A stretch of DNA of 63,982 nucleotides, filler included, from an uncultured bacterium (GTDB taxonomy: Bacteria > CAZDME01 > JAYEMH01), in the NCBI GenBank assembly GCA_964506785.1. It is 6 parts of 6 records of this genome, joined end to end, with 100 filler letters (N's around TTAATTAATTAA, not from the genome) between each part and the next. Parts side by side here need not be neighbours in the genome. Positions count along the whole stretch, not along the records: positions 35,271 to 45,965 come from CAZDME010000045.1; 5 more parts are not named here. One strand, given 5' to 3'. Shown one piece after another: positions 6,128 through 62,005 of this stretch. The notes under the pieces were generated by a model. It saw nothing but the letters and a program-made list of their open reading frames with translations, was not told where the DNA came from and searched no databases. Position 1 is the first letter of the stretch. Each line of letters starts with the position of its first letter. Both the position numbers and the translations under genes were made by a program.

Positions 6128-6138
6128 AAGGAGATAAG

Positions 6139-6564: not shown

Positions 6565-6578
6565 GGAAAAAGTAAGGA

Positions 6579-7772: not shown

Positions 7773-7784
7773 GCGAAGGATAAA

Positions 7785-9678: not shown

Positions 9679-9722
9679 AGATATTTCTGAACGGACTCAA
9701 GGACAAGCAGCGAGGACGGATA

Positions 9723-10850: not shown

Positions 10851-10931
10851 TGATACACATTAAACTATAAGCTGTCCGCGATACGCCAAAAAACGTTTAC
10901 TAAACGCTATACGCTGTCTTGGGAGTATATT

Positions 10932-11639: not shown

Positions 11640-11646
11640 AGAATAA

Positions 11647-12242: not shown

Positions 12243-12342
12243 NNNNNNNNNNNNNNNNNNNNNNNNNNNNNNNNNNNNNNNNNNNNTTAATTAATTAANN
12301 NNNNNNNNNNNNNNNNNNNNNNNNNNNNNNNNNNNNNNNNNN
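12243..12342. other. Artificial contig linker
   Basis: N44-TTAATTAATTAA-N44 (stop codons in all frames). Confidence 0.98.
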
Positions 12343-14954: not shown

Positions 14955-15205
14955 TCTACTAAAAAACGGCTCGCTAAAAGTAAGCGCTCTGATTGCGCTG
15001 AAAGGTTAAAAGGCGATTTTAGGAACTAAAGAGGCTTGATAATGAATAGTGGGAAATATTCGAATCCGATTTGGCATGCTGATCCTTTTTCCCTTATTTT
15101 AGATAGTGAAGACGTTATTATAAAAGAAGTTACGAAAAAGAAATTCTTGTCAAAACGCAGTCAAAAAATTTTAATTTTCCCTCTAAAAATTCTCAAAGTC
15201 TAATT

Positions 15206-15282
15206 TGGTCGGGGCACCCAGACTCGAACTGGGGACCTCCTGCTCCCAAAGCAGGCGCGCTAGCCATCTGCGCTATGCCCCG
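15206..15282 (-). tRNA. tRNA-Pro(TGG) with encoded CCA
   Basis: Cloverleaf CGGGGCA...CCTGCTTTGGGAGCAGG...TGCCCCGACCA. Confidence 0.95.
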
Positions 15283-24268: not shown

Positions 24269-24368
24269 NNNNNNNNNNNNNNNNNNNNNNNNNNNNNNNN
24301 NNNNNNNNNNNNTTAATTAATTAANNNNNNNNNNNNNNNNNNNNNNNNNNNNNNNNNNNNNNNNNNNN
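24269..24368. other. Artificial contig linker
   Basis: N44-TTAATTAATTAA-N44. Confidence 0.98.
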
Positions 24369-31530: not shown

Positions 31531-33705
31531 ATGTCCAGATTGATTCTAAAGAATTACGGCGGCAGCTACCAGTTAAAAATTGAGAATGCCGATGATTTCG
31601 AAAAGATTTATGATCTTAGCGATGCCCGCTGGGCGGCCACCAGCATTCCCATTGACAGTTTGAATTGCGATACTGCTTTTCTTTCTTATGTCGATACGGA
31701 TAAAAACGGCCGTATCCGCACCGATGAATTAAAAGCTGCTCAAGGTTGGCTCTTCAAGTATTTAGCTAATCGCAGCCGTCTATCTGAAGAAAGTGATGTT
31801 CTCATCCTTGATGATATTGACACCAGCCATCCCGAAGGGAAAAAAATATATACCGCTGCCAAAAGCATTTTAGCTAATCTCGATTTACCCGATGCCCGGG
31901 AGATTAGTCTAATCGAAGTCCGGGACAGAAAAACTATTATGGCTAATGCCGCCGGTAATGGCGACGGCATTATTCCTCCGGAGGCTGCATCTAAGGCTGA
32001 TTTATCGCGGTTTATTGGTGATGTTATGGAGACGGTTGGCTCCAGGCTTGATGCCGGTGGAAAGCCGGGAATTGGTGAAGGAGAACTGCAAGAATTTTTA
32101 GCCGAGGCAGAGGCTTATCTCAACTGGCGGGCTAAAGGGGAGATTCCTAAGGGAAAAAAATTTACCGAGATTATGCCCTGGGGAAAAGAAACAGGAGAGG
32201 CCTTTGAATCGGTAGCTCGCTTGGAAGAAAAGATTGAGCAATATTTTACCCAGTGTGACATGGTTACCTTTGATGGGCAGGCTTCCACGCGGATGCAGCT
32301 CCGCCAAAAAGAACTTGAAGAAATGGATTTTAGCGATGTTTCGACGCTCAAGGCTCGTCTTAAAGAGGCGCCGCTTTCTTCACCCAATGCCAGAGGCATC
32401 CTTTATTTGGAAAAAATGATTAATCCTTTATATGCCGAGTCTCTAAATAAACTTAAAGATAATGTTTTGAAACGCGCCCTTGGGAGATTGACCAAACAGC
32501 TTAATAGGGAAGACTGGAATAAGGTCAAGGCTATTTTTATTCCTTACCGGGACTGGTTGGAAAGTAAAGAGGGGAATAAAGTTGAAAAACTGGGCATAGA
32601 AAAGCTCCGTTTTTATCTTAAAGGTTCATATAAACACGAAATAAGCAATTTTATATCCAGGGATCAGGCGGTGGCTGAGAACCTCAGCCAGATAGATAAT
32701 CTGGAAAAACTTATACTCTACCAGAGATGGTTAATGAACCTGGCCAACAATTTTGTCAATTTCCGCAATCTTTATGACCCTGAGTGTCGCGCCCTCTTTG
32801 AAACGGGAAAATTGGTTATTGACGGCCGGGAGATGACCTTTACTTTGAAGGTTCGAAATAGGGACGAGCATAAGAAAATAGCCCGGGATAGTTTTATCTA
32901 TTTAATGTATCTGGAAATTACCGGCCGCCGGGACCAAGTTTTTTCGCCAGGTTCAGAGGAATCCTCTTTGCCTGGACAAGGCACCAGCTTTGAAATTGTT
33001 ACCGCCGTAACCGCTGGCAGCGTTGGCCGGCTTCGTATCGGCAAACGGGGTATTTTTTTTACTACCGACGGCCAGGAATGGGACGCTCAGGTGGTTGATA
33101 TTGTTAGAAATCCGATAAGCCTCTGGGAATCGGTAAAAGAGCCTTTTCAGCAATTTAGTAGTTTTATAAAGGATCAGGTAGATAAGTTTACCCAATCCCG
33201 AAAGGACAAACTTGAAGGTACTGTTTCTCAAGCTGGCCCCTCGGGTATTGCCCGCGACCTTCTTCTCGGCGGGGGAATTGCCATTGCTGCTTTAGGCTCA
33301 GCTTTTGCTTATGTGACCAAGGTCCTTTCCCAGGTACGTCTCATCCATATTGCCGGCGTTTTTTTAAGCGTACTGGTAATTATTTTACTGCCCGGGCTCA
33401 TTAATGGTTTTATTAAACTTCGAAAAAGAGACATGAGTGTTATTCTGGAGGCCTCGGACTGGGCGGTAAATGTCCGAATGCGTCTGAGTGCCTCCTTAGG
33501 GGCGCTTTTTACCCGCCTTCCGGCTTTACCCAAAGGAGCCTGTAAGAAACGAAGAGACTTACTCGGCCAGTTTGTCAAAAAAATCCGTTATAGTTCCTTT
33601 GATTTTCAAAAAACGCCCAGGCTAATTTTAATTGTTCTTTTTATTTTTGTTTTAGTTGTTTTTCTGATTTTTCATTTTAAAGGAAGCTTTTATTCTATCT
33701 TTTAA
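31531..33705 (+). CDS. Hypothetical membrane protein with N-terminal EF-hand-like motif
   Basis: DTDKNGRIRTDE loop; C-terminal hydrophobic helices; AAGGAG RBS. Confidence 0.8.
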   Translation: MSRLILKNYGGSYQLKIENADDFEKIYDLSDARWAATSIPIDSLNCDTAFLSYVDTDKNGRIRTDELKAAQGWLFKYLANRSRLSEESDVLILDDIDTSHPEGKKIYTAAKSILANLDLPDAREISLIEVRDRKTIMANAAGNGDGIIPPEAASKADLSRFIGDVMETVGSRLDAGGKPGIGEGELQEFLAEAEAYLNWRAKGEIPKGKKFTEIMPWGKETGEAFESVARLEEKIEQYFTQCDMVTFDGQASTRMQLRQKELEEMDFSDVSTLKARLKEAPLSSPNARGILYLEKMINPLYAESLNKLKDNVLKRALGRLTKQLNREDWNKVKAIFIPYRDWLESKEGNKVEKLGIEKLRFYLKGSYKHEISNFISRDQAVAENLSQIDNLEKLILYQRWLMNLANNFVNFRNLYDPECRALFETGKLVIDGREMTFTLKVRNRDEHKKIARDSFIYLMYLEITGRRDQVFSPGSEESSLPGQGTSFEIVTAVTAGSVGRLRIGKRGIFFTTDGQEWDAQVVDIVRNPISLWESVKEPFQQFSSFIKDQVDKFTQSRKDKLEGTVSQAGPSGIARDLLLGGGIAIAALGSAFAYVTKVLSQVRLIHIAGVFLSVLVIILLPGLINGFIKLRKRDMSVILEASDWAVNVRMRLSASLGALFTRLPALPKGACKKRRDLLGQFVKKIRYSSFDFQKTPRLILIVLFIFVLVVFLIFHFKGSFYSIF

Positions 33706-33752: not shown

Positions 33753-35021
33753 ATGCAGAAGGCCAATTTACTTCGCGGCAGAATAATATCTTTACTTTTT
33801 GCTTGTTTTCTCTTGGGATCTTTAGAGGTATTAAGCTGGTGGATTTTTCCCTCTGAAGATAGAATGGGCGAAATACTTAGTATCCTTAAGCAGGATTCGG
33901 TTCTTTTTTGGCGGCAGAGGCCCAATTTAAATGTAATTTTTCAGAAAGTAACTGTTAAGACTAATTCGTTGGGATTAAGAAACAAAAAGGTTGCGCCAAG
34001 AAAAGCTGCAAATGTTTATAGAATTGTTTGTCTTGGGGCTTCTCCTACTTTTGGCTGGGGTGTAAACAGCCATGATACCTACCCATATAAATTAAGGAGA
34101 CTTTTAGCTGAAAAACATGGACAGCAAAGGCAGATTGAAGTTATCAATGCCGGTGAAATTGGCTACACCTCATATCAGGGGCTCCTTTTTTTAAAAAAAG
34201 AAATTTTGAATCTCTCTCCGGATTTAATCACTATTTCATATGTTCTTAATGACGTAGATAAATATCGTTTTTACAGAAGCGACGGCAGGAGTGATAAAGA
34301 ATTATCTCCTAAAAACAAAATTTTGGTGACTGTAGAGAATCTTTTAGACAAAAGCAATTTCTTCAGGAGGCTTAAACGAATCATCGTTTACAATAAAGGG
34401 ATGGCGGTTAAATACTTTGGGGAAATTAATGATGGCATTTATTCCGAGGCACGAAGGGTTTCGCCGGAAGACTATAAAATGAATTTGGAGGCAATTATTG
34501 AAACCGCTGTTCAAAATAACGTCAAAATAGTATTAGTTAAAATGCCCGTTAATCTGTCTTTTCCAGACGAGATAGCTGAATCCCTAAAGGCTAAAGCGGA
34601 CGGGCATATAATTTCTGCCTTAAGTTATGCTAGGGTTAATGAATATGATGAAGCTATTAGGGAGCTTAAAGAAGCGGTAGAATTTAATCCCTATTCAAGT
34701 AAGGCATTTTATTATTTAGGGATTTACTCCGAAAGAAAAAAGAAAATAAAGCAGGCAAAGGGTTACTTTCAAAGAGCAAAAGAGGCGGAGCTTTTTCAAT
34801 GCGGAAGGCTTGGTAAGTTTTATAATGAGACTATGGAAGAGGTATCCCATGAGAAAAATATTCCTTTAGTTGATATTGTTTCGACTTTTAAGGTTTTTAA
34901 CAGAGAAAACGGTAAGTATCTCTTCCTGGATCAAATTCATGATTCTATTCATCCCAATGCTTTAGGGCACGAGATTATCGCAAGAGCCATATACGTTTTA
35001 ACAAACAGCGTCCTGTTTTAG
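33753..35021 (+). CDS. SGNH/GDSL hydrolase with inserted TPR region
   Basis: CLGASPTFG, INAGEIGYTS, LND, DSIHPNALGH; TPR EAIRELKEAVEFNPYSSKAFYYLG. Confidence 0.85.
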   Translation: MQKANLLRGRIISLLFACFLLGSLEVLSWWIFPSEDRMGEILSILKQDSVLFWRQRPNLNVIFQKVTVKTNSLGLRNKKVAPRKAANVYRIVCLGASPTFGWGVNSHDTYPYKLRRLLAEKHGQQRQIEVINAGEIGYTSYQGLLFLKKEILNLSPDLITISYVLNDVDKYRFYRSDGRSDKELSPKNKILVTVENLLDKSNFFRRLKRIIVYNKGMAVKYFGEINDGIYSEARRVSPEDYKMNLEAIIETAVQNNVKIVLVKMPVNLSFPDEIAESLKAKADGHIISALSYARVNEYDEAIRELKEAVEFNPYSSKAFYYLGIYSERKKKIKQAKGYFQRAKEAELFQCGRLGKFYNETMEEVSHEKNIPLVDIVSTFKVFNRENGKYLFLDQIHDSIHPNALGHEIIARAIYVLTNSVLF

Positions 35022-35170: not shown

Positions 35171-35270
35171 NNNNNNNNNNNNNNNNNNNNNNNNNNNNNN
35201 NNNNNNNNNNNNNNTTAATTAATTAANNNNNNNNNNNNNNNNNNNNNNNNNNNNNNNNNNNNNNNNNNNN
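35171..35270. other. Artificial contig linker
   Basis: N44-TTAATTAATTAA-N44. Confidence 0.98.
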
Positions 35271-37048
35271 GCGGGATTAGTTTTTGAACCGTAATTATAG
35301 CCGGCATCAGTAAAACCACGCGAATACCACCGGCCGTCCCAGGCAACCTTATTAATCCTATCGCTCATCACCCGGGCCTGCCTCAAGCATTCTTTTTGCT
35401 TGGATTTTTTGTTGAGCAAGCCGGCTAATTCAGCCATAATTTTAAGAGACCTGACCAGCGCCATAGCCAGCCAGACACTTTCTCCCCGGTGTTTGATGCC
35501 GGCGGCATCAATGCCGTCATTCCAATCGGCATGGCCAATTAAAGGCAGTCCCCTTTCACCAGTATCATTAAAGGTGAAATTCAAGTTTTTCTCCAGGTGT
35601 TCGAAAAGGGTGCCGGAACCGTCCTTAACCGCTCCACCTTTCCAATTTAAATCAATCTGCCAACCTCTAATCCAGCGGTCTTTTAAATAAGGAATCTTCT
35701 GGGAAAGTATTTTTTTATCGCCGGTTTCTTTTATATAAGAAGCCACCGTCGGCGTCAGCCAAATCTGGTGGTCTTTGTTGGGGCGGTGCCCGGCCGGCCC
35801 GTCTGTATCCGACCAGCCCGGAGCCGAAGTGCCGTCCTGCCGGATAAGCAAGGCAATCTTTAATATCTTGCGGCGGGCCAACTCCGGATTAATGGAGGTA
35901 ATCGATTCGGCATCCTGGCAGGAATCCCGATAGCCGCGGCCGCCGGAACTTTCGTGATAATATGAAGGAGAACGGGACCAGAAATTACAAATGTATAACT
36001 GGTATTTTACCCAGATATTGGCAATTTTATCAAAATCTTTGTCCGGCGTTTCTATCCAAACATTTTCCAATATTCTTTTCTGCCAGAGCTTTTTTACCTT
36101 TTCTAATTCCTTTTTGGCCTCATCTACCTTTCGATATTTATCTATCATCGATTTTACCGAACCAGTAGCCCTGGGATAACGCCAGGGAAATCTTCCGTCA
36201 ATCTTCATATCTTCACATAGGGTCTGCCCCATAACAATAACAAATTCTTTTGATTCTCCCGGTTTTAATTTTAATTCATGCTTTAAGAGGCCAACGCCGT
36301 CTTCACCGGAGCAAAACTCATAATTTTTAAAATTTTTCTCCTTTAAAAATTCCGGGCTGGCTTCCGTCTGAAATCGGCCGAGACTAGGCACCTTGCGGAC
36401 GGAAAAACCCCGAACCGGCAGGCTGCTCGCCAGGAAAGTCAAATATGGATTGGACTGAATATCCATATCGCCCCAGACAGCCGTTTTACGGCCAATGACG
36501 GCAGATAAATCTTTATCGAACCAGATGCGGTTATATAAATTCATAATATTGCGATAGCGAATCTCCATGTGAAAATCGCCGATTAACCATTCAACATACG
36601 GGAAAACCTCTAAATTTTTTAGACGCTTAGTCTGATTGCTGATTTTAACCAGCCAGATTTCACAGGTGTCTTTGCGGGGGACAAAATAGGTTACCTTCGA
36701 TTCGAGACCATACAAACTAGTTTCAATGGAAGTATAACCCAACCCGTGAGAAGCCCGGAAGGATTTGGGTTTAATTCTTAAAGGCTGATAGGCGGCACTC
36801 CAGGATTTTTGGGTATCTTTATCTTTCAAAAAAAGAAAACGGCCGGGACGGTCAATCTGCCAGTTACCCTGCTCCCAGCGAAGAAGACGGTCAGTGCGGC
36901 AGTCTTTATAAAAGGAATAGCCGCCGGCGACCTGCGAAATTATGGCGCAGTAATTTTCGTTGGTCAGATAATTTATCCAGGGACGGGGCGGGGTTGGATT
37001 AGTAATAATAAATTCAGTGCCGTCTTTAGAAAAATACCCGTATTTCAT
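35271..37048 (-). CDS. GH94 glycoside phosphorylase, C-terminally truncated
   Basis: MKYGYF...TPPRPWINYL, GRGYRDSCQD, GHADWNDG, GESVW, WDGRWYSRGF. Confidence 0.92.
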
Positions 37049-37099
37049 AGTTGCGTTTTTCCTCCTTACTCGTTAAACCGATTTGTCATCCACGACTTA

Positions 37100-38995
37100 C
37101 TATTTATTCCACAATTCTTTATAAACATAATAGGCTTTTCGAAGATGGCGGATAAATGGGCTTAAGGTGCCGTTGGCCTGGCTGACCACTCCCAACCATT
37201 CTTCATACATCCAGCCGTCGGGAAAAGGGCCGATAAACTGGCCGTAGCGCTCCTGAATAGCCGGATTATTTTCCGGCGGAGGGCCGGCTTTCCACCACTC
37301 GTCATTCCACTCGAAAAGGACGCCGCCTAAAGAGTTTCCCTGGCCGCTTCCAGCCATGTTATATTCGATATCCTCCCAGCAGCCCTTTAAATAATTTGCC
37401 TGTTCTTCTTCCATCCTCTGGCGCGTGTAATTACCGTGCATATAAGCCGGACAGCCATATTCGGTAATTAAAACGGGATGGCCATAAACATCCCTGACAT
37501 TTTCCCAGAGACTGCGGCCAAAACCGTAACTGCCCCGGTAGGTGTTTGTCCCAAAAATATCGACATCAGGGCAATTCTCGGCCAGTTTATCCAAATAAAG
37601 GACATCGCCGTTACAAATCGCTACCGGATGGTCCGGGTCGACGGAGTGAATCCACCTGGCCACATCATTGACAAATTTGTAATAAGGAATGGGGTCGCTC
37701 TTGGCGTTACAGGCAACACCATAATTATTTTCATTGCCGAGAATCCAGATTAAAACCCAGGGCTCATCCTTGCAGTTCATAACCATCTCTTTGACACTGT
37801 TCATCATATTCTCGCGGTGCTTAGGGTTACTATAGTCCGTTCCGGCATACCATTCCGCACCGGAGCCAATGGTATACATACCCAGATAATCGCCGACGGC
37901 ACAGCGGATGCCGTAATTTTCGTATAATTCGCCAAGCAGCTTTTTGTTATAGGCGTGATGATAAAGCCGGATGGTATTTACCCCCATATCCTTCATCAGC
38001 TGGAAATCTCCGACGGGCGGTTCGACCTCAATCTCCTGTTTATTATTGCCGCTGGTATCGATAAAGGCATCATAAGGGCCGTCAATTTTTCCGTTTTGAT
38101 TATAATCGGCAAACATCCAGTCCCGGTGGACGACTAAACTTCCGTTATCCGGAGTCAGGCCGACCTTATTAGGCGTATAGGCGACACATTTGATTTTATA
38201 GGGTTCGCCGTCAACCAGAAGCTGCCAATGTCCGTTATCGTATTTTACCAGCCGCACCTTGCCTTTTCCCCGGCCGCCGACCACCCGGTGCCGGGTGAGG
38301 TCCACTTTAGGAGGGGTAACTTCTTCGGGCGGCGCGGCAACAAGCTTGCCCGGGTCAGTAATCACAATGTCGTTATTGACATTATCATCAAAACCGTTCT
38401 CGACGACAATCTTGGCGCCCACCAGCTTTATCCCCAATTCCGGATGAATCCGGGTTAAATAATCGATTTTATCAATAGAGACCTTGCCGATATACCAGGG
38501 GGTTTTCCAGTATGTCCAGCCGACGGTAAAAGGGTAATGGACAATGACGGCGTAATAGGCCTTTATGGCCGGAAGAATCAATCCGGATTTTTCCAAAGCC
38601 AAAGCGGTATAAAAAAGTTTTACCCCCGGGTCTTCATCAGTGGTTGCCCATTTATAAAAACAGACGCGTTGATAATCGGTATTGACGAAATCCCAGTGGC
38701 TGCCTTCAAGCCACTGATGTTGGTCTAACCAGCGGTAATCCGGGTCGCGAAAGATAGAAATCTCATTAGGATAAATTCCCTCCCCAACTGCTTTGGAAAG
38801 CCCGTCGCGGTCGGTTATTTCATAAACGTACTCTCTTGTTCCCTTATTTTTAAACTGGCCGTATTTTTCGTAATCAACAATCTTCTCGGTGCCCGGGTCG
38901 TATAAGTTAATCGGCCGAGCAGGAGGCTGCCAGGAAGCAAAAGCTACTGCACTAAAAAACAATAAGATGATACTGGTTAAACATAATTTCTTCAT
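37100..38995 (-). CDS. Secreted clan GH-A (GH2-TIM-barrel-like) glycoside hydrolase with N-terminal TPR-like module
   Basis: Signal peptide; MGVNTIRLY, LGNENN (acid/base), ITEYG (nucleophile), FEWNDEWWK. Confidence 0.85.
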   Translation of the reverse strand: MKKLCLTSIILLFFSAVAFASWQPPARPINLYDPGTEKIVDYEKYGQFKNKGTREYVYEITDRDGLSKAVGEGIYPNEISIFRDPDYRWLDQHQWLEGSHWDFVNTDYQRVCFYKWATTDEDPGVKLFYTALALEKSGLILPAIKAYYAVIVHYPFTVGWTYWKTPWYIGKVSIDKIDYLTRIHPELGIKLVGAKIVVENGFDDNVNNDIVITDPGKLVAAPPEEVTPPKVDLTRHRVVGGRGKGKVRLVKYDNGHWQLLVDGEPYKIKCVAYTPNKVGLTPDNGSLVVHRDWMFADYNQNGKIDGPYDAFIDTSGNNKQEIEVEPPVGDFQLMKDMGVNTIRLYHHAYNKKLLGELYENYGIRCAVGDYLGMYTIGSGAEWYAGTDYSNPKHRENMMNSVKEMVMNCKDEPWVLIWILGNENNYGVACNAKSDPIPYYKFVNDVARWIHSVDPDHPVAICNGDVLYLDKLAENCPDVDIFGTNTYRGSYGFGRSLWENVRDVYGHPVLITEYGCPAYMHGNYTRQRMEEEQANYLKGCWEDIEYNMAGSGQGNSLGGVLFEWNDEWWKAGPPPENNPAIQERYGQFIGPFPDGWMYEEWLGVVSQANGTLSPFIRHLRKAYYVYKELWNK

Positions 38996-39029
38996 CGGCT
39001 ATCTCCTTTACCTACCTATAATAACAGTT

Positions 39030-40835
39030 TTATTTCTTCTTAACTACTTCCACATAGACGATATCGCCGAATCTTCTTTGGTAATTGCCCTTTTGATAAG
39101 TGCTCCCGGCGGAAAAGCTGATAAAACCCGGCTCTTTTAAAAGATAGCGAAACTCTATCTCGCCTTTTTCATCGGTAACTTTCGACCCTTTTACCTGCTC
39201 CCAATAACTGGACTCAAAAATTCCGTAATCAACCCTCTGCCGGCAAACGGGGTTACCGTCAGCATCGGTAACTCTAACCTTAACCACAGCATCAATAGTT
39301 TTGTGACCGACAAAATATTTGGGCTCGTCGGGAATAACCTTGACGGAAATAGGAGGAGGCGGAATTCTTGTTTTATTAAAAGTCCAGATCTGGGCCTCTT
39401 TTTCAACCAATAGTATCTTTTCTTCTTCCCCGGTTTCTTCACTTTTAATTTCAAAAGCCCGGATTCTTAAGATGTGTTCTCCATCTTTCACCCGGGAAGA
39501 ATCCCAGCTACCCTTCCACCAAAGCCTTCCCTCTTTTTCTAAAGGCTGCCACTTAGTTTTATCAACCTGGTATTCAACTAAAGAAGCCCATTCAGTAACA
39601 AAAACCTCAATGGGCACCTCGGCTCGATAATAATCCATCTTTTTCGGCTCAATCATAATGGCTTGATTATAATCTTTGAGCGCTTTATAAAGCAGTCGCG
39701 GTGTCCCGGTTATATTCGAGCTTTCATCCGGAATCGCCAAAACGCCAAACCACTCTTCCGGGTCGTTTTTATCATGTTTGGTTTCATCCCCGGAGAAATC
39801 ATCGTTTTTCCACCATTCATCAACCCAGGCAAAAACACAGCCGCCCGTAGCCCCGGCCTGAACCAAATCATCGTACATCTCAAGCATACCTTCGGCCTGT
39901 TCTTCATCGCTTAAACCCCCATACCTTTCGATAGAAGCATGGGCAACCGGCGAAACCGAAAGGCCAAATTCACTGATAACTAAAGGTTTATTCCGGGCAT
40001 GCTTTTGCTTCAACCATTCCACATAGGGCCGGTATCCCAGGCAGTGGCTGACGGTAACCGGATTATACGAGAATACATTGAAACAGACGGCATCCAGGTA
40101 ATCAAGCCCAAGGAAAGCCAACTGAGGCCAGTTAGAAAACGAGATGTATCGGTTTTTTTCCAACTCATGTATTTTTTCTACCATTTTAGCGAACATCGAT
40201 TCGGTCGTCTCTTTTCCGGAAATCAAGACGCGTTCTACGGGAGGTTCATTTGAAATCAAAAAGAGCATAATGTTATCAAAAGCCTGAACGTTTTTAATAT
40301 CATGCAAGGCCATATTCAAGGCGTAATTTTGCGCCGCCGGAGAGCCATAATCCCGGGTAGGGTCAAACCAGATACCCATAATTACCAGAAGCCCATATTT
40401 TCGGGCTAAATCCAATTCACTCCGGGTTAACGGCGCCCAGGTGCGAATGGCGTTAAAACCAGCGGAGCGGATGAGCTCGAAATCCTTCTCCATAATATCC
40501 GGATTAATCCGGTGTAACCAGGGAAGCTGATTGGGCCGCCAGGCGCCATAACCCATTCCTTTAATAAAAATCTTTTCGCCGTTTAAACAAAACCAATTAT
40601 CTTTAATCTCTACCTCTATCGGGCCGTAAAATCCGGTTACCTTTCTTTCTTCTAAAACGGGTGAAAGAGCTTCTTTTACCGGCATGACTTCCGGTTTGGT
40701 AACTTCCTTTACCCGGCGGGCAGAAAATAATTTAAAACCAATGAAACCGGCAGTTATTATTAAAACAATAATTAAAAGATTCTCTATGCTTTTTTTCCCT
40801 CGGGGCGTATCATTGCTCTTTTCCATGTTTTCCAT
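39030..40835 (-). CDS. Membrane-anchored clan GH-A glycoside hydrolase with C-terminal Ig-like domains
   Basis: N-terminal TM; GFNAIRTW, ISNEP, ISEFG, WVDEWWK; VTDADGNPV Ig-like motif. Confidence 0.85.
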   Translation of the reverse strand: MENMEKSNDTPRGKKSIENLLIIVLIITAGFIGFKLFSARRVKEVTKPEVMPVKEALSPVLEERKVTGFYGPIEVEIKDNWFCLNGEKIFIKGMGYGAWRPNQLPWLHRINPDIMEKDFELIRSAGFNAIRTWAPLTRSELDLARKYGLLVIMGIWFDPTRDYGSPAAQNYALNMALHDIKNVQAFDNIMLFLISNEPPVERVLISGKETTESMFAKMVEKIHELEKNRYISFSNWPQLAFLGLDYLDAVCFNVFSYNPVTVSHCLGYRPYVEWLKQKHARNKPLVISEFGLSVSPVAHASIERYGGLSDEEQAEGMLEMYDDLVQAGATGGCVFAWVDEWWKNDDFSGDETKHDKNDPEEWFGVLAIPDESSNITGTPRLLYKALKDYNQAIMIEPKKMDYYRAEVPIEVFVTEWASLVEYQVDKTKWQPLEKEGRLWWKGSWDSSRVKDGEHILRIRAFEIKSEETGEEEKILLVEKEAQIWTFNKTRIPPPPISVKVIPDEPKYFVGHKTIDAVVKVRVTDADGNPVCRQRVDYGIFESSYWEQVKGSKVTDEKGEIEFRYLLKEPGFISFSAGSTYQKGNYQRRFGDIVYVEVVKKK

Positions 40836-40870
40836 AATTTAGGCTCCTTTATCATCCAAATTAACCGTTA

Positions 40871-40899
40871 ATGGTAGCATACTTCAGGCACAGTGTCAA
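40871..40899 (-). promoter_or_regulatory. sigma70 promoter of the GH-GH-GH94 operon
   Basis: TTGACA-17 bp-TACCAT with TG extension. Confidence 0.65.
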
Positions 40900-41052
40900 G
40901 AAAAGTCGCCTTTCAAAGTTCCGATATCTTACTCCCTTTATCTTTTATGCCTCTCGCTATTATAAAAATAAAGGGGCGCTTTACCTGCCACCCCCCTATT
41001 GCCGCATGCAAATTAAGTTATTTGCTAAAACCTTATTTTTTAATCCCCAGTA

Positions 41053-41559
41053 TTAATAAACTTTTATGGCTATTGGTAATTTATAGAATTTATTTTGGGG
41101 ATCCAGCTTTAACCTCGACTTGGCCTCATCGGCCAATTTAATCAAAACGAATTTCCCTCGCTGGATTTCTAATAAATTGCGGCTTTCCGGATATTCCATA
41201 ATAACCTTCTTATATGCCTGGTTGGCCTCTTTGGATTTACCCTGAACCCGGCAGGCTTCAGCGACAATAAACTGGGACATCCCCACATCATTAAGAATCC
41301 GGTATTTGCTAAAGACCTCTTTAGAATCAGCGCTTAAAGCAATCTTACCCAAAACCTTTATTTTACTTTGCTCTTTCTTTGCTTCCCGGCTAGAAAGTTC
41401 AATGCATTTTTCTGCGGCGGCAATGGCCTGGGTGAATTTTCCCTGAGCTAAAGCCCGAGCGGCCTCCCGGGTTAGCTCTTGAGAGGACCCTTCGGCAAAA
41501 GCCAAAGGAATAAAACCAAAAACCAAGCCAAAAACCAGAATTAAATTAATAACCCTCAT
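41053..41559 (-). CDS. Secreted TPR-like protein, one degenerate copy of the LNDV repeat
   Basis: Signal peptide; ELTREAARAL...KCIEL...RILNDVGMSQFIVAEA. Confidence 0.75.
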   Translation of the reverse strand: MRVINLILVFGLVFGFIPLAFAEGSSQELTREAARALAQGKFTQAIAAAEKCIELSSREAKKEQSKIKVLGKIALSADSKEVFSKYRILNDVGMSQFIVAEACRVQGKSKEANQAYKKVIMEYPESRNLLEIQRGKFVLIKLADEAKSRLKLDPQNKFYKLPIAIKVY

Positions 41560-41686
41560 TCTTCCTCCTTCCCTGCCTTTTATTCTCCTTTTTGAACTAA
41601 GCGTTTAAATGTTCGCCCGGCAGAATCCGCGTATCCCTGAATTATTATATCTCTTTAAAAATCATTTGCAAGATAAAAGATACCGA

Positions 41687-41725
41687 TAAAAAGGAGAGGA
41701 TAGCGTCTCTCGATATCCTCTCCCC
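41687..41725 (-). terminator. Intrinsic terminator downstream of the 337-aa gene
   Basis: GGAGAGGATA/TATCCTCTCC stem followed by a T run on the minus strand. Confidence 0.7.
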
Positions 41726-41762
41726 TGTTATCAAATTTTACTTCCTGAATCCATCTTTAAAT

Positions 41763-42776
41763 TTAGTAACGCAGACGGGAATCATTCCAGTCAGTAATAT
41801 TGAGCATTTCTATCCGATCATCAGCAGCTTCTGAAATTTTCCAGGTTTCGTCCTTGACAAGATCGGTCTTAGCCGCACCATCCATCGCTGAACGGCCGTA
41901 AGGGAGATTATCGCCAGCTGGATTATTACCTCCGGCGCTATCAACTGCCTGATAGGTGGTAATACAGTCAGCTTTTGTTCCAATCTTACCTTTCCTTAAA
42001 GCCTCAGCCTTGATAAACCAGCAAGAAGCCACATCACAATAGGCATAACACTCATTATATAAACCTTCGATGGTACTGGCCCCGGGCGAATCGTGGTAAT
42101 CTTGAGCCCGGCTCTTCTGCCCCTCAGCCTGATCTTTATACAGGGCAATACAAAATTCGGCATAATCTATAGCCTCACTGTACTTGCCGCTGCCTAAAGC
42201 TTCCCAGGCAGCTACCGTCATCGCCGCTGAACTGGCTTCATCACCGGTAAAACCTAATAACCGCGCATAAGCGGCATCAGCCGGCTTCCAGAGAATGGTA
42301 GCCGTGGCATCAGCACACTGAGCATAGAAATAATCACCAGGCGAACGGTCATCAGCAACTAATTTATGGAAAGCATCTTTGGCATCGTTAGTCAAAGAAC
42401 CATCCCTTAGTCTATAGGCATCTCCCAGGATGTAGTAACAGGTACCAACATCATTCAAAGCCCAATAACCGGCATAGACTTCAGTTACCGTTCCGGCGGG
42501 ATAGTCCGCTAAACCCGTTTTCTGGACATCTGCCCTGGGACTATAAAAAAGGGTACAAATCTCTGCCCAGCCGATAGCATCATCATAATCAGGCGTGCCG
42601 GCGTAATCATAGGTAAAGGCAGGATCATCATCAGCGGTGTAGGCACCTCCTGTAAAGGCGGCCCAGGCGGCTCCAGTGAGATTCTTAGAGGTACTCAATT
42701 TAAAACTGGCAAAAGCTGGAGTGGCCATTAAACCGACTAAAAGAACCGCAGCGCAAATCGCAATCAGTTTTCTCAT
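41763..42776 (-). CDS. Secreted TPR-like protein with two divergent LNDV repeats
   Basis: Signal peptide; WALNDVGTCYYILGDA, YAQC...WKPA, second unit MTVAAWEAL...CDVASCWFIKAEA. Confidence 0.8.
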   Translation of the reverse strand: MRKLIAICAAVLLVGLMATPAFASFKLSTSKNLTGAAWAAFTGGAYTADDDPAFTYDYAGTPDYDDAIGWAEICTLFYSPRADVQKTGLADYPAGTVTEVYAGYWALNDVGTCYYILGDAYRLRDGSLTNDAKDAFHKLVADDRSPGDYFYAQCADATATILWKPADAAYARLLGFTGDEASSAAMTVAAWEALGSGKYSEAIDYAEFCIALYKDQAEGQKSRAQDYHDSPGASTIEGLYNECYAYCDVASCWFIKAEALRKGKIGTKADCITTYQAVDSAGGNNPAGDNLPYGRSAMDGAAKTDLVKDETWKISEAADDRIEMLNITDWNDSRLRY

Positions 42777-42814
42777 TTTTTCACCTCCTTCAATTAAAAG
42801 TTCAATCTATCTAT

Positions 42815-42843
42815 TTAGACAAAAGAAAACTAAAAAAGTTCCC
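42815..42843 (-). promoter_or_regulatory. ECF sigma promoter
   Basis: GGGAAC-17 bp-GTCTAA. Confidence 0.8.
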
Positions 42844-42846
42844 TTT

Positions 42847-43446
42847 TTATAAACAAGCCGCTTTTCTGGCTTTACCTATAGCCGCAGGGGTATTCCAATC
42901 GGGAGAGGAAGAATAATCCAAAACCTTGCTTGTCTCGGGACTAAGCGGATAGGAAGGCACAAAAGTAAGCAAACCTTCTATCGCCTCTCTTGATTTGGCT
43001 ATCCGCCCGGGATTGGCGCTGTAAGAGGCAGGATTAAAAATAACGCCGGCGGGATGAGAAATCAAAGATTTAGAAGGGCTTTTTGAAAAATATACCTGGC
43101 CCGGGCCAACAACTACATAAAGGATAATTAATATAGAGGCGGCTAGAACCAGAGATTTAGTTAAAACCGGCAAATCTAGCGGATGAGACAGATTATCCCA
43201 GATTGAAGCGAACTTATGGGCAAAACATCTTTTATCCAGTTTTTCATTTATTTTAAGTAAAAAATCAGCCGGGGGAACAACTTCATCCAGATTTTTTACT
43301 TCCTGAACAACCGCCTTTAAGAGACTCAATTCCTTGCGGCAAACCGGACAGCCCTTAAGATGTAATTCTAACTTTTCTTTCTCTTCTTTTCGCAACTCCC
43401 CTTCAATATAAGGAGAAAATAGATTTTTCATCTTTTGACAATTCAT
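42847..43446 (-). CDS. Zinc-binding (ZAS, zf-HC2) anti-sigma factor with one TM helix
   Basis: HLKGCPVC (HX3CX2C); TM segment; directly follows the ECF sigma gene. Confidence 0.9.
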   Translation of the reverse strand: MNCQKMKNLFSPYIEGELRKEEKEKLELHLKGCPVCRKELSLLKAVVQEVKNLDEVVPPADFLLKINEKLDKRCFAHKFASIWDNLSHPLDLPVLTKSLVLAASILIILYVVVGPGQVYFSKSPSKSLISHPAGVIFNPASYSANPGRIAKSREAIEGLLTFVPSYPLSPETSKVLDYSSSPDWNTPAAIGKARKAACL

Positions 43447-43449
43447 TTT

Positions 43450-44061
43450 TTATAGTATCCCTTCTAATTTTTCTTTAAGCATTTGCCTGGCCCGGTGGAG
43501 ACGGGATTTTACCGTTCCAATCTCGCATTTCAAAACGGCGGCTATTTCTTCGTAGCTGAACATTTCCCGGTCCCTTAAAATAAGCACCATTCGATGGCTT
43601 TCCTCTAAAAAATCGATGGCTTGACGAATTGTTTCTCTTTTTTCTTTTTCCGCCAGGGCTTCCCGCGGGCCGGGGCTATCCGCCGGCAAATCCAGTTTGA
43701 GACTGCCTTCTTTTAACTCCAGCGGTTCATCCAAAGAGCGTTTTTTATAATAGCCGCGCCGTTTTCGGTATTTTAATTTGTTTTTACAAAGATTAACGGT
43801 AATCCGGTAAACCCAGGTGTAAAAACTTGCCTGGCCTCGATACTTCTTTATTGAAACGTAAACCTTAATAAAGGTATCCTGGGCTAAATCAAGCGCCTCA
43901 GTATAGTTTCCCAGGATGTGATAAGCCAAATTAATAACTTTTTTCTGGTAGCGGCAAATAATTTCGTCGAAAGCCCGTCGATCCCCAGCCTGGCATCGCT
44001 TTACTAATTGCCTTTCTTCATAGCCGAGTGCATCATTAGCCGGCTGGTAGGCTAAAGCCAT
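43450..44061 (-). CDS. ECF sigma factor (RpoE/SigW-like); start reassigned to ATG 44061
   Basis: DLAQDTFIK, FYTWVYRITVN, SYEEIA..L....GTVKSRLHRAR; AAGGAG RBS precedes MALAYQ. Confidence 0.93.
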   Translation of the reverse strand: MALAYQPANDALGYEERQLVKRCQAGDRRAFDEIICRYQKKVINLAYHILGNYTEALDLAQDTFIKVYVSIKKYRGQASFYTWVYRITVNLCKNKLKYRKRRGYYKKRSLDEPLELKEGSLKLDLPADSPGPREALAEKEKRETIRQAIDFLEESHRMVLILRDREMFSYEEIAAVLKCEIGTVKSRLHRARQMLKEKLEGIL

Positions 44062-44077
44062 TTCTTTCTTCTCCTTG

Positions 44078-44106
44078 TTAGACAAAAGAATTTCCGAAAG
44101 GTTCCC
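44078..44106 (-). promoter_or_regulatory. ECF sigma autoregulatory promoter
   Basis: GGGAAC-17 bp-GTCTAA; a sigma70-type TTGATT-17-TATACT also lies at 44212-44184. Confidence 0.8.
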
Positions 44107-44232
44107 TAAATTTTAAAAGGCCGCCTTTTTATATACAGGCAGCCCCCTATTTTTCCAAATTGGCCATTTTTCAACCCCAGTGAAGTATAGCACATAATAA
44201 CGCAAAAATCAATGCGGCCCCGAAACTTTAAA

Positions 44233-44267
44233 ATAACAGCCCAGGCTAAATACACCTGGGCTGTTAT
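44233..44267 (-). terminator. Intrinsic terminator downstream of the 464-aa gene
   Basis: Perfect 13-bp stem ATAACAGCCCAGG/CCTGGGCTGTTAT. Confidence 0.75.
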
Positions 44268-44309
44268 CATCGAACACTAAATTCTACCAACCATAGGGAT
44301 AAAAAAACT

Positions 44310-45704
44310 TTATGGCGATTGAATCTCTTTTTTTACCTCTTCAGTTTCTACCCCTGTCTCCGGGCTTTCCTGGCCAGTTTCTTCCTTAAGGGCAAGTTCT
44401 TTTTCTACCCTGATTTTGTTCAATCTTCCTCGGGCACCAACTGAAGGTTTCCAGAACCAGCCTTTAGGATCCCAGCACTGGGCAAAGTTATATTTATCAA
44501 GTATGGTCTGAAATTCCTTCTCGGCTTTATCCCACATCTTCTGATTCATATAGGCCTCACCGCGGATAAAATGACAGGTACCGACATCATTTAAAGCCCA
44601 CCAATCAAAAGCGCTTTCTTTGGGGGCATATTCAGTCAGTTTAGCCTGCTGTTTTTCTGCTTCCGGGCCATAGAGGGCAATGCATTTATCCGTATAGGCC
44701 TCAAGCGCCGGATAATCCTTCGCCCCTAAAGCACCCCAGGCTTTCACCGTTAGAGTCATCGAGGTATAGTCACCAAAATCCCATTTAGCGCTGAAACGGT
44801 CAATCTCATTCTGCGCTCCTAGGTTGACCTTCCAGAACCAACCTTGAGGATCCCAGCATTGAGCATAGTTTAAATCATTGATTACCTTTTCAAAATGCTC
44901 CCTGGCTTCCTCTTGTTTCCCCTGTTCGGCTAAAGCCTTCCCTAGAATAAAATGACAGACGCCGACATCATTCAAAGCCCAATATTTTTCGTGAAGGTCA
45001 AGAATGCCATTTTGGTCCAAATCAGCTTTGGTATCCGGATAATCAGTGAGACCGGCCTGCATTTTTAAAGCTTCGTTTTCAAAGAGGTCGATACATTTAT
45101 TGGTATAAAGCTCAACCGCGTAATAATCTTTGGCTCCCAGGGCACCCCAGGCTTTGGTCGTCAAGGTCTGCGAGGTATAATCGCCGAAATCATAGCCAGT
45201 CCCCAAAGTAGTTAGCTTATCTTTGGCACCTTCGGCTACCTTCCAAAACCAGCCTTTGGGATCCCAGCACTGGGCATAGCCCAACTTATCAATGATTGCC
45301 TGATAGGCTTCCCGGGCTTTATCGAATTCACCCTGTTCCCGATAAACTTCTCCGCGAATGAAATAACAGGTAGCCACATCATTCAAAGCCCAATAATCAA
45401 AAGCAAGCTCCTTAGGAGCAAAATCAGTCAGCTGGGACTGTTGAAAAACAGCTTCTTCCTCGTACAATTTTATACATTCATCAGTATAAGCTAAAGCGGC
45501 TTCATAATCTTTGGCTAAGAGCGCCTCCCAGCCTTTAACGGTAAGTGTTTGTGACGTCCGGTCGCCAAAATCCAAAACTTTCTCCACCACCTCTTCTTCG
45601 GTTATTTTAACGACTTCTTCCTTAGGCTTTTTCGTTTCTAAATACAACCAAGCTAAACCGCCAATAACTACTAAAACCAACACTATAATTAAGGCTTTCT
45701 TCAA
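44310..45704 (-). CDS. Membrane-anchored protein with three ~130-aa Trp/Cys-rich TPR-like repeats
   Basis: Three copies each of DFGD.TS.TLT.K.W.AL, WALNDV..C.FI.G and AQCWDP.GWFWK. Confidence 0.88.
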   Translation of the reverse strand: MKKALIIVLVLVVIGGLAWLYLETKKPKEEVVKITEEEVVEKVLDFGDRTSQTLTVKGWEALLAKDYEAALAYTDECIKLYEEEAVFQQSQLTDFAPKELAFDYWALNDVATCYFIRGEVYREQGEFDKAREAYQAIIDKLGYAQCWDPKGWFWKVAEGAKDKLTTLGTGYDFGDYTSQTLTTKAWGALGAKDYYAVELYTNKCIDLFENEALKMQAGLTDYPDTKADLDQNGILDLHEKYWALNDVGVCHFILGKALAEQGKQEEAREHFEKVINDLNYAQCWDPQGWFWKVNLGAQNEIDRFSAKWDFGDYTSMTLTVKAWGALGAKDYPALEAYTDKCIALYGPEAEKQQAKLTEYAPKESAFDWWALNDVGTCHFIRGEAYMNQKMWDKAEKEFQTILDKYNFAQCWDPKGWFWKPSVGARGRLNKIRVEKELALKEETGQESPETGVETEEVKKEIQSP

Positions 45705-45832
45705 TGTTTCCTCCTTCCATTTATTTAGTTAGAAAAAAAATGATTTTAAGCAGAAAGATTTCTAAAAGCTTTAGAAACATCTTTTAAGCTTTAGCACCAC
45801 CTTCCTTTCTTTTCCTGTCTATCCCATTTCTA

Positions 45833-45862
45833 TTAGACAGCGGGAAACCCGGATTTGTTCCC
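45833..45862 (-). promoter_or_regulatory. ECF sigma promoter
   Basis: GGGAAC-18 bp-GTCTAA. Confidence 0.7.
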
Positions 45863-45965
45863 TCCCCAGGTTGTGAAATGTGTCATGTGGAATGTATTAT
45901 GTAAATGTAGAATTATAAATTTAATTTTCCGATTTTTCATTACACATCACACATCTAACATTACA

Positions 45966-46065
45966 NNNNNNNNNNNNNNNNNNNNNNNNNNNNNNNNNNN
46001 NNNNNNNNNTTAATTAATTAANNNNNNNNNNNNNNNNNNNNNNNNNNNNNNNNNNNNNNNNNNNN
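45966..46065. other. Artificial contig linker
   Basis: N44-TTAATTAATTAA-N44. Confidence 0.98.
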
Positions 46066-56751: not shown

Positions 56752-56851
56752 NNNNNNNNNNNNNNNNNNNNNNNNNNNNNNNNNNNNNNNNNNNNTTAAT
56801 TAATTAANNNNNNNNNNNNNNNNNNNNNNNNNNNNNNNNNNNNNNNNNNNN
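56752..56851. other. Artificial contig linker
   Basis: N44-TTAATTAATTAA-N44. Confidence 0.98.
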
Positions 56852-61905: not shown

Positions 61906-62005
61906 NNNNNNNNNNNNNNNNNNNNNNNNNNNNNNNNNNNNNNNNNNNNNNNNNNNNNNNNNNNNNNNNNNNNNNNNNNNNNNNNNNNNNNNNNNNNNNN
62001 NNNNN
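61906..62005. other. 100-N scaffold gap
   Basis: Pure N run; 61705-61836 recurs at 62006-62137. Confidence 0.95.

Follow-up and report, generated by a model that had tools for sequence, protein, structure and literature searches.

A Trp/Cys-rich, TPR-derived repeat domain linked to GH158-like glucanases in a probable ABC-type beta-glucan locus of an uncultured bacterium

Positions 35271-45965 of the 63,982-base stretch of DNA analysed here (the whole of which is called the window) are contig CAZDME010000045.1 of an uncultured bacterium (assembly GCA_964506785.1). The contig has eight genes, which encode three proteins built of a Trp/Cys-rich repeat, here called REP, an extracytoplasmic function (ECF) sigma factor and its anti-sigma factor, two glycoside hydrolases (GHa and GHb) and a phosphorylase of glycoside hydrolase family 94 (GH94). 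We think it rather probable that this is a beta-glucan locus of the ATP-binding cassette (ABC) importer type, and that REP is the non-catalytic, probably glycan-binding partner of the glucanase, which here would also belong to the ECF regulon and act as its sensor. The backbone of such a locus, with importer, LacI repressor, GH94 and exported glucanases, is of a known kind, and ECF control of glycan loci is also known from elsewhere; what appears to be new is the family of REP domains, together with its constant pairing with GH158-like enzymes. The original prediction, made from the DNA alone, spoke of a new system, which is too strong, since the locus is of a known kind and only its accessory domain is new. 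In the literature on glycan enzymes of Omnitrophota and Ratteibacteria and on tetratricopeptide repeat (TPR) proteins we found no description of the REP family, of the locus or of the partnership between REP and GH158-like enzymes, and in the Omnitrophota literature we found nothing on cellobiose phosphorylase.

All eight open reading frames (ORFs) of the contig are on the minus strand, so the co-oriented genes of the original prediction are there and of the kinds it named, and its counts of three, two and one repeat were recovered with a REP hidden Markov model (HMM). In gene order they are:

44310..45704, minus strand: REP3, 464 aa, found by the REP HMM; N-terminal hydrophobic anchor or signal, then three 128-aa units
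43450..44085, minus strand: ECF (group 4) sigma factor, 211 aa (203 if the start is codon 9), from Pfam and NCBIfam
42847..43446, minus strand: ZAS (zinc-binding) anti-sigma factor, 199 aa; zf-HC2 7e-9, 36.1 bits against a cut-off of 22.2
41763..42776, minus strand: R2, 337 aa; signal peptide and two divergent REP units (HMM 1e-19 and 7e-15)
41053..41559, minus strand: R1, 168 aa; signal peptide and one divergent REP unit (HMM 4e-19)
39030..40835, minus strand: GHa, 601 aa; Glyco_hydro_2_C 3e-11; N-terminal membrane anchor, clan GH-A TIM barrel and C-terminal Ig-like region
37100..38995, minus strand: GHb, 631 aa; Glyco_hydro_2_C 4e-13; signal peptide, N-terminal domain with a half-REP, and GH158-like TIM barrel
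35271..37048, minus strand: GH94 phosphorylase, first 592 aa; PF06165 9e-59, PF17167 2e-53; no signal peptide; cut by the contig end

Hydrophobic N-terminal segments, read by eye, are present on five exported proteins and on neither GH94 nor the sigma factor, and they agree with the earlier proposal that both hydrolases would be exported.

A conserved gene block in related genomes

A scan of species-representative genomes gave 466 stretches encoding relatives, and the best-scoring 80 of these, which make up 76 loci in 65 assemblies, were examined. Their records are labelled Omnitrophota (32), metagenome-assembled genomes (MAGs) of 'Planctomycetales' (21), Auribacterota (11), unnamed bacteria (9), and Ratteibacteria, Elusimicrobia and Actinomycetes (one each). 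The ORFs of the loci were searched with the window proteins, with reference proteins from two of the loci (L044 and L045) and with the REP HMM, and a Pfam check of 110 proteins from eight of the 76 loci confirmed the identities.

A GHb homolog adjoins or is fused to a REP gene in 51 of the 76 loci, and a 121-aa fragment of one is found at the contig end of the closest relative, L001, whose REP3 is 81% identical to that of the window. In 34 loci a full-length GHb has one REP unit as an in-frame N-terminal fusion, and in 13 GHa and GHb form a single protein of about 1200 aa. An ABC substrate-binding protein (SBP) or permease is encoded in 50 loci, LacI in 33 and GH94 in 24, and in 47 loci a REP gene comes after a permease gene, either directly or one gene further on. 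The usual order in Omnitrophota is GH94, SBP, permease, permease, REP::GHb, a free REP protein of two to three units, two conserved unknowns and LacI. REP, GHb and an oligosaccharide ABC importer, often with GH94 and LacI, are one conserved gene block across the relatives, and the link between the repeat and genes for clan GH-A and GH94 enzymes, on which the original prediction staked itself, recurs outside the window.

The window contig encodes no SusC/D pair and no ABC sugar transporter, as the original prediction said, but the gap where an importer would be expected is better explained as an assembly break than as a feature of the genome. One SBP gene and two permease genes lie directly upstream of REP in 47 of the 76 loci, among them L001, where the order is SBP, permease, permease, REP3, REP3, sigma, anti-sigma, five REP genes, GHa and GHb, and in the window the upstream contig edge comes 261 bp before the first gene, REP3. 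A search of the other contigs of the window found neither this importer nor LacI nor the two conserved unknowns; the ABC system met there is the Pst phosphate system.

It is very improbable that the REP proteins are generic TPR proteins that lie near carbohydrate-active enzymes (CAZymes) by coincidence. Pfam does show generic TPR models only, and GHb is lacking from a third of the loci (25 of 76), but the 34 in-frame REP::GHb fusions already contradict such a reading, and the half-REP within GHb and the gene order kept in 47 to 51 of the 76 loci speak against it as well.

Some further features of the related loci were recorded. The two conserved unknowns that follow the free REP protein are about 225 aa (39 of the 76 loci) and about 440 aa (36 of the 76), at 10942-11616 and 11881-13200 in L044; the first (U225) has a Cys-containing signal peptide, is aromatic-rich with a beta-rich look and may be a lipoprotein or a carbohydrate-binding module (CBM), the second (U440) is a coiled coil with a transmembrane anchor, and neither is on the window contig. 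Unfused GHa and GHb are found in L033 (9471-15595) with extra CAZymes downstream, the extra genes being for a Reg_prop propeller, a CBM30-like protein, another GH2_C-type barrel and a GH42 beta-galactosidase. Quite a different REP context is seen in L023 (9698-19768) and L025, where arrays of six to seven REP units are followed by a family 2 glycosyltransferase (GT2), an unknown protein and an ORF of about 1500 aa in which Pfam finds RHS, SpvB and TcdB-middle domains. Upstream of the importer in L003 (3-6314) there is a 2104-aa ORF with phosphoglucomutase domains at residues 1154-1693; nothing in the PDB matches its first 1150 aa and it has no homolog in the other 75 loci, and the idea of a conserved giant fusion of phosphorylase and phosphoglucomutase was dropped for that reason. 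ORFs of 1800-2100 aa are found at the same position in L005, L028, L030, L035 and L056.

The REP domain

The REP HMM was built from 278 units out of 120 listed homologs, which have two (36 proteins), three (60), four (16), five (5) or six (3) units each. The unit is about 128 aa long, rich in Trp and Cys and derived from the TPR. In the window the HMM finds three, two and one copies in the three repeat proteins (E 1e-59 to 4e-19) and no further copy among 408 ORFs, the next best having an E-value of 0.06; pairwise BLASTP among the three proteins gives 8e-24 to 8e-8. The units of REP3 are at residues ~44-172, 171-309 and 308-440 (E 1e-59, 1e-54 and 2e-59), while the single unit of R1 matches profile positions 3-102 and is without the Trp hairpin described below. 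R2 has paralogs in L001. Among the nearly invariant positions of the family are W16, C34, a WALNDV stretch and the motif Q-x-W-D-x-x-G-W-F-W-K.

AlphaFold2 (AF2) gave models with a pLDDT of 87.2 for REP3 and of 95.2 (pTM 0.90) for a single unit. The modelled unit has four helices, a beta-hairpin made from the Trp-rich motif QCWDPxGWFWK and a capping helix. When the three-unit and single-unit models were compared with the PDB by Foldseek, the matches were generic TPR proteins only (TM-scores 0.12-0.35) and the C-terminal domain of SMYD2 (0.50), and the single unit had no PDB fold match at E<=1e-3, its best TPR TM-scores being 0.27-0.35. REP does belong to the TPR superfamily, since TPR_2 scores 70.3 bits in the 464-aa protein against a threshold of 27; the 168-aa protein has a TPR score of 26 bits, just under that threshold, and the 337-aa protein has no Pfam model. 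The likeness to generic repeats (TPR_2, TPR_6 and others) lies in helix 3 and helix 4, which the TPR models above threshold cover in each REP3 unit, and the differences are the 128-aa unit, two unusually long helices, the invariant WALND and the conserved hairpin.

Neither Pfam nor NCBIfam has a REP-specific family. Of 8000 scored candidates 1309 are REP homologs at E<=1e-3, and where these have been named at all the name is 'tetratricopeptide repeat protein'; most of the family seems to occur in Omnitrophota, Auribacterota and Ratteibacteria. In the Atlas the automatic names are 'Beta-glucanase family protein' for one REP cluster and names of the GH2 and GH72 type for GHa. No CBM or SusD model is among the Pfam and NCBIfam hits for REP, and Foldseek found no match to SusD or to a solved glycan-binding fold in the PDB.

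The main rival explanation is that REP is a protein docking module, and that the arrays, anchored in the membrane or secreted, scaffold REP-bearing enzymes beside the importer in the manner of cohesins and dockerins. The TPR-derived fold suits this, and so do the occurrence of the same domain once on the enzyme and two to eight times on enzyme-free proteins, the half-unit in GHb, which could complete a stack, and the fact that the REP units fused to GHb are a separate, Cys-less subtype. However, the strongly conserved Trp, Asn, Asp, Gln and Lys positions suit a sugar site at least equally well, and the N-terminal non-catalytic modules of CAZymes are usually carbohydrate-binding, so we regard docking as an unlikely explanation, though one to be taken seriously. 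The original prediction that the repeats bind glycan or scaffold the enzymes still seems the best reading of them, and it gains support from the fusion to a hydrolase.

Hydrolases

Judged from their sequences, GHa and GHb are exported retaining enzymes of clan GH-A. Neither can be placed in GH2, as they match the barrel model PF02836 weakly (43-50 bits) and reach only 20-36 bits with the NCBIfam GH2 equivalogs, for which the cut-offs are 544-2000. GHa has the catalytic-type motifs N-E-P (N196-E197) and S-E-F-G (E289), and among solved structures it comes nearest to 9fz9 and 9g4n, 'GH2 catalytic domain-containing protein', at 4e-56 with the single sequence and 5.6e-78 with a profile; next comes GH158(Pro) at 2.9e-9. 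We found no publication for the structures 9FZ9, 9G5G and 9G4N.

GHb matches GH158(Pro) (9oro, 5e-15) and BuGH158 (6pal, 7e-7) in the PDB, and its motifs G-N-E (N421-E422) and T-E-Y-G (E512) line up with the acid/base and nucleophile motifs of GH158, so that both the sequence match and the conserved N-E acid/base and E nucleophile argue for a similarity to that family. What GHb shares with it is the clan GH-A barrel with the NE and TE(Y/F/W)G motifs; it differs in having about 300 additional N-terminal residues, the half-REP included, and we call it GH158-like rather than a member because the match covers only about 180 residues. According to the accessible parts of the two reports, BuGH158 is an endo-beta-1,3-glucanase with the catalytic residues N136/E137 and E220 (PMC7157763), and laminaribiose is the product of GH158(Pro), a processive beta(1,3/1,4)-glucanase (PMC13195107).

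A degenerate half-REP, which resembles the C-terminal two thirds of a REP unit, is found at residues ~96-181 of GHb (38453-38710 of the window), and REP-derived sequence is therefore part of the window's own enzyme. Alignment of the N-terminal domain of GHb with the REP profile by hhalign gave a probability of 92.8% (E 3.8e-7), compared with 0.1% for a reversed REP profile and 0.4% when GHa was used instead of GHb. The half-REP is present in every full-length GHb across the relatives examined. The wider GHb family has 2102 cluster representatives at E<=1e-3.

Another way to see these enzymes would be as effectors, used with REP outside the cell against the glycan envelope of prey or host by predatory Omnitrophota, sugar uptake being secondary. 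'GH2 catalytic-domain' hydrolases recur beside giant genes of Omnitrophota and are read as cell-wall-degrading in the accessible parts of two preprints (10.64898/2026.06.07.730766, 10.1101/2023.11.21.568195), and several of our GHa::GHb loci lie beside ORFs of 1800-2100 aa. On the other hand the tight block of importer, LacI and phosphorylase is typical of the catabolism of nutrients, no homolog of the giant L003 ORF is found in the other loci, and the giant-gene preprint, as far as its accessible text goes, finds no proteins of >=5,000 aa in 34 Ratteibacteria genomes. The window enzymes moreover appear to have an inner-membrane anchor or a signal peptide, and no secretion system is encoded on the contig. 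Altogether a role in predation seems quite improbable.

Phosphorylase and likely substrate

The phosphorylase belongs to GH94, with 199 bits for PF06165 and 182 bits for PF17167, the match reaching profile positions 3-265 of 420 owing to the truncation. It has the motif HADWNDG at residue 506, which we take to hold the catalytic Asp. In the PDB the best matches of the fragment are cellobiose phosphorylases (5e-70), but chitobiose phosphorylase (4e-67) and, from cyclic beta-1,2-glucan synthase, the GH94 domain (1e-67) are almost level with them. Its ortholog in L044, which is full-length, leans more distinctly to cellobiose phosphorylase, at 1e-147, with chitobiose phosphorylase at 3e-125 and the synthase domain at 1.7e-101. 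Of the 24 loci with GH94, 17 have the window's type and seven have, at the same position, one that is like laminaribiose phosphorylase (in L045 the match to 6ggy is 2e-264). The SBP of L001 matches generic CUT1 oligosaccharide binders, best a xylo-oligosaccharide binder at 3.7e-22, and no ligand is inferred from this. Taken together, the enzyme matches make a beta-glucan with beta-1,3 linkages the likeliest substrate, which is probably a beta-1,3 or mixed-linkage glucan.

The original prediction left room for both beta-glucan scavenging and turnover of the cell's own periplasmic glucan, and the second of these is developed in a rival explanation where the module senses and remodels a beta-glucan of the periplasm or envelope, the REP proteins are envelope parts under an envelope-stress sigma factor and GH94 takes part in synthesis or length control. 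It is in keeping with this that the sigma factor is RpoE-like with its motif at the REP genes, that the GH94 fragment matches the cyclic beta-1,2-glucan synthase domain almost as well as it matches cellobiose phosphorylase, and that a REP array precedes a GT2 glycosyltransferase in L023 and L025. But what is conserved beside REP is an oligosaccharide importer, a LacI repressor and a stand-alone GH94, which in the relatives is about 805 aa long; the L044 ortholog is nearer to cellobiose phosphorylase than to the synthase domain, seven loci have a laminaribiose phosphorylase instead, no glucan synthase is found in the block, and ECF sigma is absent from 73 of the 76 loci. We find this explanation improbable. 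The context of importer, LacI and phosphorylase argues for catabolic scavenging over turnover of own periplasmic glucan, and of the two suggestions made at first scavenging is preferred.

ECF sigma factor, anti-sigma factor and promoters

The sigma factor is a member of the ECF group by Sigma70_r2 (5e-18, 65 bits), r4_2 (2e-12, 47 bits), Sigma70_ECF and TIGR02937 (110 against a cut-off of 42.9). With the RpoE equivalog TIGR02939 it scores 152.4 bits against a cut-off of 236.15, and it is for this reason called RpoE-like and not an RpoE ortholog. The anti-sigma gene starts 3 nt past the sigma stop. Its product has the motif H29-x3-C33-x2-C36 (HLKGCPVC at residue 29) and one transmembrane segment as read from the sequence, by which it is assigned to the ZAS anti-sigma factors, and its exported tail of about 83 aa is poorly conserved compared with L001.

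A search for GGAAC-N16-18-GTCTAA over the whole window gave exactly three exact matches, all on the gene strand, where 0.03 are expected and none of 100 shuffled sequences reaches three; allowing one mismatch adds no site in the window, and 2.2 in shuffles. Promoters of the sigma-70 type come from a consensus scan. The predicted regulatory sites are:

45833..45861, minus strand: putative ECF-type promoter, GGAAC-N18-GTCTAA, upstream of REP3
44078..44105, minus strand: putative ECF-type promoter, GGAAC-N17-GTCTAA, at the start of the sigma ORF (autoregulation)
42815..42842, minus strand: putative ECF-type promoter, GGAAC-N17-GTCTAA, in the 70-nt gap before R2
44184..44212, minus strand: sigma-70-like promoter, TTGATT-17-TATACT, upstream of the sigma gene
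41644-41671, minus strand: sigma-70-like promoter upstream of R1
40871..40899, minus strand: sigma-70-like promoter, TTGACA-17-TACCAT (with TG), upstream of the hydrolase genes
44232..44268, minus strand: terminator-like hairpin and U-tract after REP3; 15-bp stem, -25.9 kcal/mol, z -6.9, 0/200 shuffles
41690..41726, minus strand: terminator-like hairpin and U-tract after R2; -20.3 kcal/mol, z -4.1, 0/200 shuffles, also found in the terminator scan
40967..41000, minus strand: weaker terminator-like hairpin after R1; -15.6 kcal/mol, z -2.3, 6/200 shuffles

The -10 element of the second ECF site runs into the first TTG of the sigma ORF, and translation may therefore start at codon 9, an ATG (44061) that is conserved in L001. 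The sigma-70-like site before the sigma gene should be given little weight, because the scan is not enriched overall (27 sites against 16.3 +/- 4.4 in shuffles); the terminator scan likewise is not enriched over shuffles overall, and only sites in intergenic gaps were used. L001 has the ECF motif at the corresponding positions of its sigma and REP genes but with other spacer sequences, the one equivalent to R2 being at 10839-10866, and motifs with one mismatch are found before the second REP3 and 284 nt upstream of GHa. L001 also has a counterpart of the hydrolase promoter, TTGACA-N17-TAAAAT, found by eye.

From these motifs and hairpins we read four putative transcription units. The first would be REP3 with an ECF promoter, the second sigma, anti-sigma and R2 with sigma-70 and ECF promoters and an internal ECF promoter, the third R1 with a sigma-70 promoter, and the fourth GHa, GHb and GH94 with a sigma-70 promoter. 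A single ECF-controlled operon does not agree with this, as hairpins split the genes and the ECF motif precedes only REP3, sigma and R2. No ECF motif comes before the hydrolases of the window, which are preceded by terminators and the sigma-70-like promoter.

Among the 76 loci an ECF sigma is found in three, L001 (orthologous), L002 and L013 (an unrelated pair 9 kb away), and is a lineage-specific addition, where 33 of the relatives have LacI instead. In L002, a relative from Ratteibacteria, the sigma gene overlaps at its stop with the start of the gene for a 541-aa protein in which a zf-HC2 anti-sigma domain and a transmembrane segment are followed by a REP3 array 72% identical to that of the window. 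The exported domain of this anti-sigma factor is thus a fused REP3 array, for which reason REP probably also provides the sensor input of the ECF switch, and the likeness to rpoE-rseA-rseB points the same way. That well-known unit of Escherichia coli has, like ours, an RpoE-like sigma, a single-pass ZAS-type anti-sigma and an exported protein, with GGAAC at -35, a TCTAA-like -10 and apparent autoregulation of sigma. The third gene here is the REP protein R2, however, and the RpoE equivalog score is under its cut-off; R2 has no Pfam and no NCBIfam family, so the likeness to RseB/MucB is one of position only. By analogy, regulated proteolysis of the anti-sigma factor is assumed. Prediction of a complex between residues 44-440 of REP3 and residues 117-199 of the anti-sigma tail gave an ipSAE of 0.00 in both runs, the fold of the partner being uncertain, and this counts neither for nor against binding.

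Two observations on intergenic DNA of the relatives may be added. In L066, L062, L067 and L058 a gene for an MFS_2 sugar transporter lies between the ABC permeases and REP::GHb, and in L066 (3637-3665) there is an exact GGAAC-N-GTCTAA motif just upstream of it. In L001 repeated elements of the TAAGGAGTAAG-type and the CTTAATCCTTAA-type were seen by eye between genes, at 13961-14227, 14728-15223 and 17029-17222, and they are absent from the shorter gaps of the window.

Proposed function

In the mechanism that we favour, the exported GH158-like GHb and the 9fz9-like GHa would release short oligosaccharides or disaccharides from a beta-1,3 or mixed-linkage glucan, and the short products would be imported by a CUT1 ABC importer, here lost at the contig break, and split by GH94 with phosphate to glucose and glucose-1-phosphate. 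REP would most likely be a glycan-binding module, single on the enzyme and in arrays of two to eight units on separate exported proteins, the arrays holding substrate near the enzymes and the importer. In the lineage of the window an RpoE-like ECF sigma and ZAS anti-sigma pair would have been inserted among the REP genes, and the predicted ECF promoters would drive REP3, the unit of sigma, anti-sigma and R2, and R2 alone, but not the hydrolases. Tentatively one could go further and hypothesize that REP is a new alpha-helical, TPR-derived CBM family that targets the GH158-like glucanase, captures glycan beside the importer in the form of free multivalent proteins, and senses for the anti-sigma factor, though we give this stronger claim well below an even chance.

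A number of observations weigh against the reading of REP as a glycan-binding partner of the glucanase in a beta-glucan locus. The 76 loci are those that ranked highest for likeness to a window protein, and their synteny is largely by descent. In a FastTree tree of 48 full-length GHb segments, from which fragments were left out (among them those of L001, L012, L026, L041, L046 and L052), the REP-fused forms are essentially one clade and the GHa-fused forms another, so the counts stand for perhaps three independent states and not for 51 events; the unfused enzyme of the window is near the base of the REP-fused clade. The 25 loci without a full GHb are mostly from Auribacterota and unnamed MAGs with arrays of three to eight units, 20 loci have neither GHb nor ABC genes, some of them on short contigs, and in L008 and L021 the importer is followed directly by REP arrays without any hydrolase. 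Among the best 150 of the 2102 GHb representatives 54 have the N-terminal domain, four a canonical REP unit and three GHa. As for the enzymes, GHb is similar to GH158 over about 180 residues only, at 5e-15, and the GH94 fragment scores nearly equally with three specificities. TPR-like folds also bind peptides more often than sugars. On the regulatory side the promoter and terminator calls are drawn from motifs, the one-mismatch motif before GHa in L001 suggests that there may be ECF input to the hydrolases, and the fusion of anti-sigma and REP is a singleton, since residues 1-125 of the protein (P0006) used as a query matched only P0006 itself, one of 320 candidates.

ABC-importer loci with LacI and a GH94 disaccharide phosphorylase are known for cellobiose or laminaribiose, and the relatives share their backbone of SBP, two permeases, LacI and a cytoplasmic GH94, the phosphorylase structures matched by the GH94 proteins of the relatives being 3qde and 6ggy. 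Such loci lack REP and a GH158-like enzyme with a REP-derived N-terminal domain, and the window adds the ECF pair. The ECF/anti-sigma glycan loci of Bacteroides also have an ECF pair embedded in a glycan utilisation locus, but the signal there comes via a SusC-like TonB transducer, of which there is none here, and the candidate sensor is REP. The Bacteroides 1,3GUL, as far as the accessible text describes it (PMC7157763), has a GH158-type glucanase beside non-catalytic exported proteins, its own regulator and products that go to an importer, all of which are features recognised here. It differs from our locus, where no SusC/SusD pair was found on the contig or in the eight Pfam-scanned loci (110 proteins), uptake would be by a CUT1-type ABC system and breakdown ends in GH94 rather than GH3, and REP has no fold match to SusD or a solved glycan binder that would liken it to the surface glycan-binding proteins of that locus. 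As no SusC-like/SusD-like pair was found, the locus is not a polysaccharide utilisation locus of the Bacteroidota kind.

Omnitrophota and their relatives are abundant and almost all uncultured, and it is debated whether they are free-living, symbiotic or predatory. The conserved block of importer, glucanase and phosphorylase indicates that beta-glucans are a food that many of them could use. A large family, at least 1309 proteins with arrays of up to eight units, is labelled merely 'TPR' in the databases. If REP binds glycan it would be a new CBM family, useful for enzyme engineering and CAZyme annotation, and if the reading is right also for the sensor, the same fold would both harvest beta-glucan and signal its presence to transcription; the fusion of anti-sigma and REP would then be a simple model for an ECF switch that senses a polysaccharide without a TonB transducer. 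Should REP turn out to dock proteins instead, diderm bacteria would have an enzyme scaffold of a new kind.

Other parts of the window

The window consists of contigs chained by spacers of the form N44-TTAATTAATTAA-N44, and genes on either side of a spacer are not to be read as neighbours, because the spacers join separate contigs. The spacers are at:

12243-12342
24269-24368
35171-35270
45966-46065
56752-56851

A run of 100 N at 61906-62005 is separate from these and lies within or beside a very long ORF. The host is an uncultured bacterium of the Planctomycetes-Verrucomicrobia-Chlamydiae group near Ratteibacteria and Omnitrophota, and it is probably diderm, since genes of the AsmA/YhdP-like and Porin_5 kinds are found on other contigs of the window.

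The very long ORF (56874-61905, plus strand) has at least 1677 aa before the N run and is followed by one of 552 aa (62326-63981, plus strand) with an open 3' end, neither of them with a Pfam match at E<=1e-6. A 724-aa ORF without a Pfam family (31531-33705, plus strand) comes before a gene for a GDSL lipase/acylhydrolase with a TPR-like insert (33753-35021, plus strand), which the REP HMM scores at just E 6.7. On a separate contig there is a cluster for synthesis or export of O-antigen or another glycan (4159-12198, plus strand), with a Wzm/Wzt ABC-2 transporter, a family 4 glycosyltransferase (GT4), a GT2, a polysaccharide deacetylase, a DegT aminotransferase and a PMT_2-like protein.

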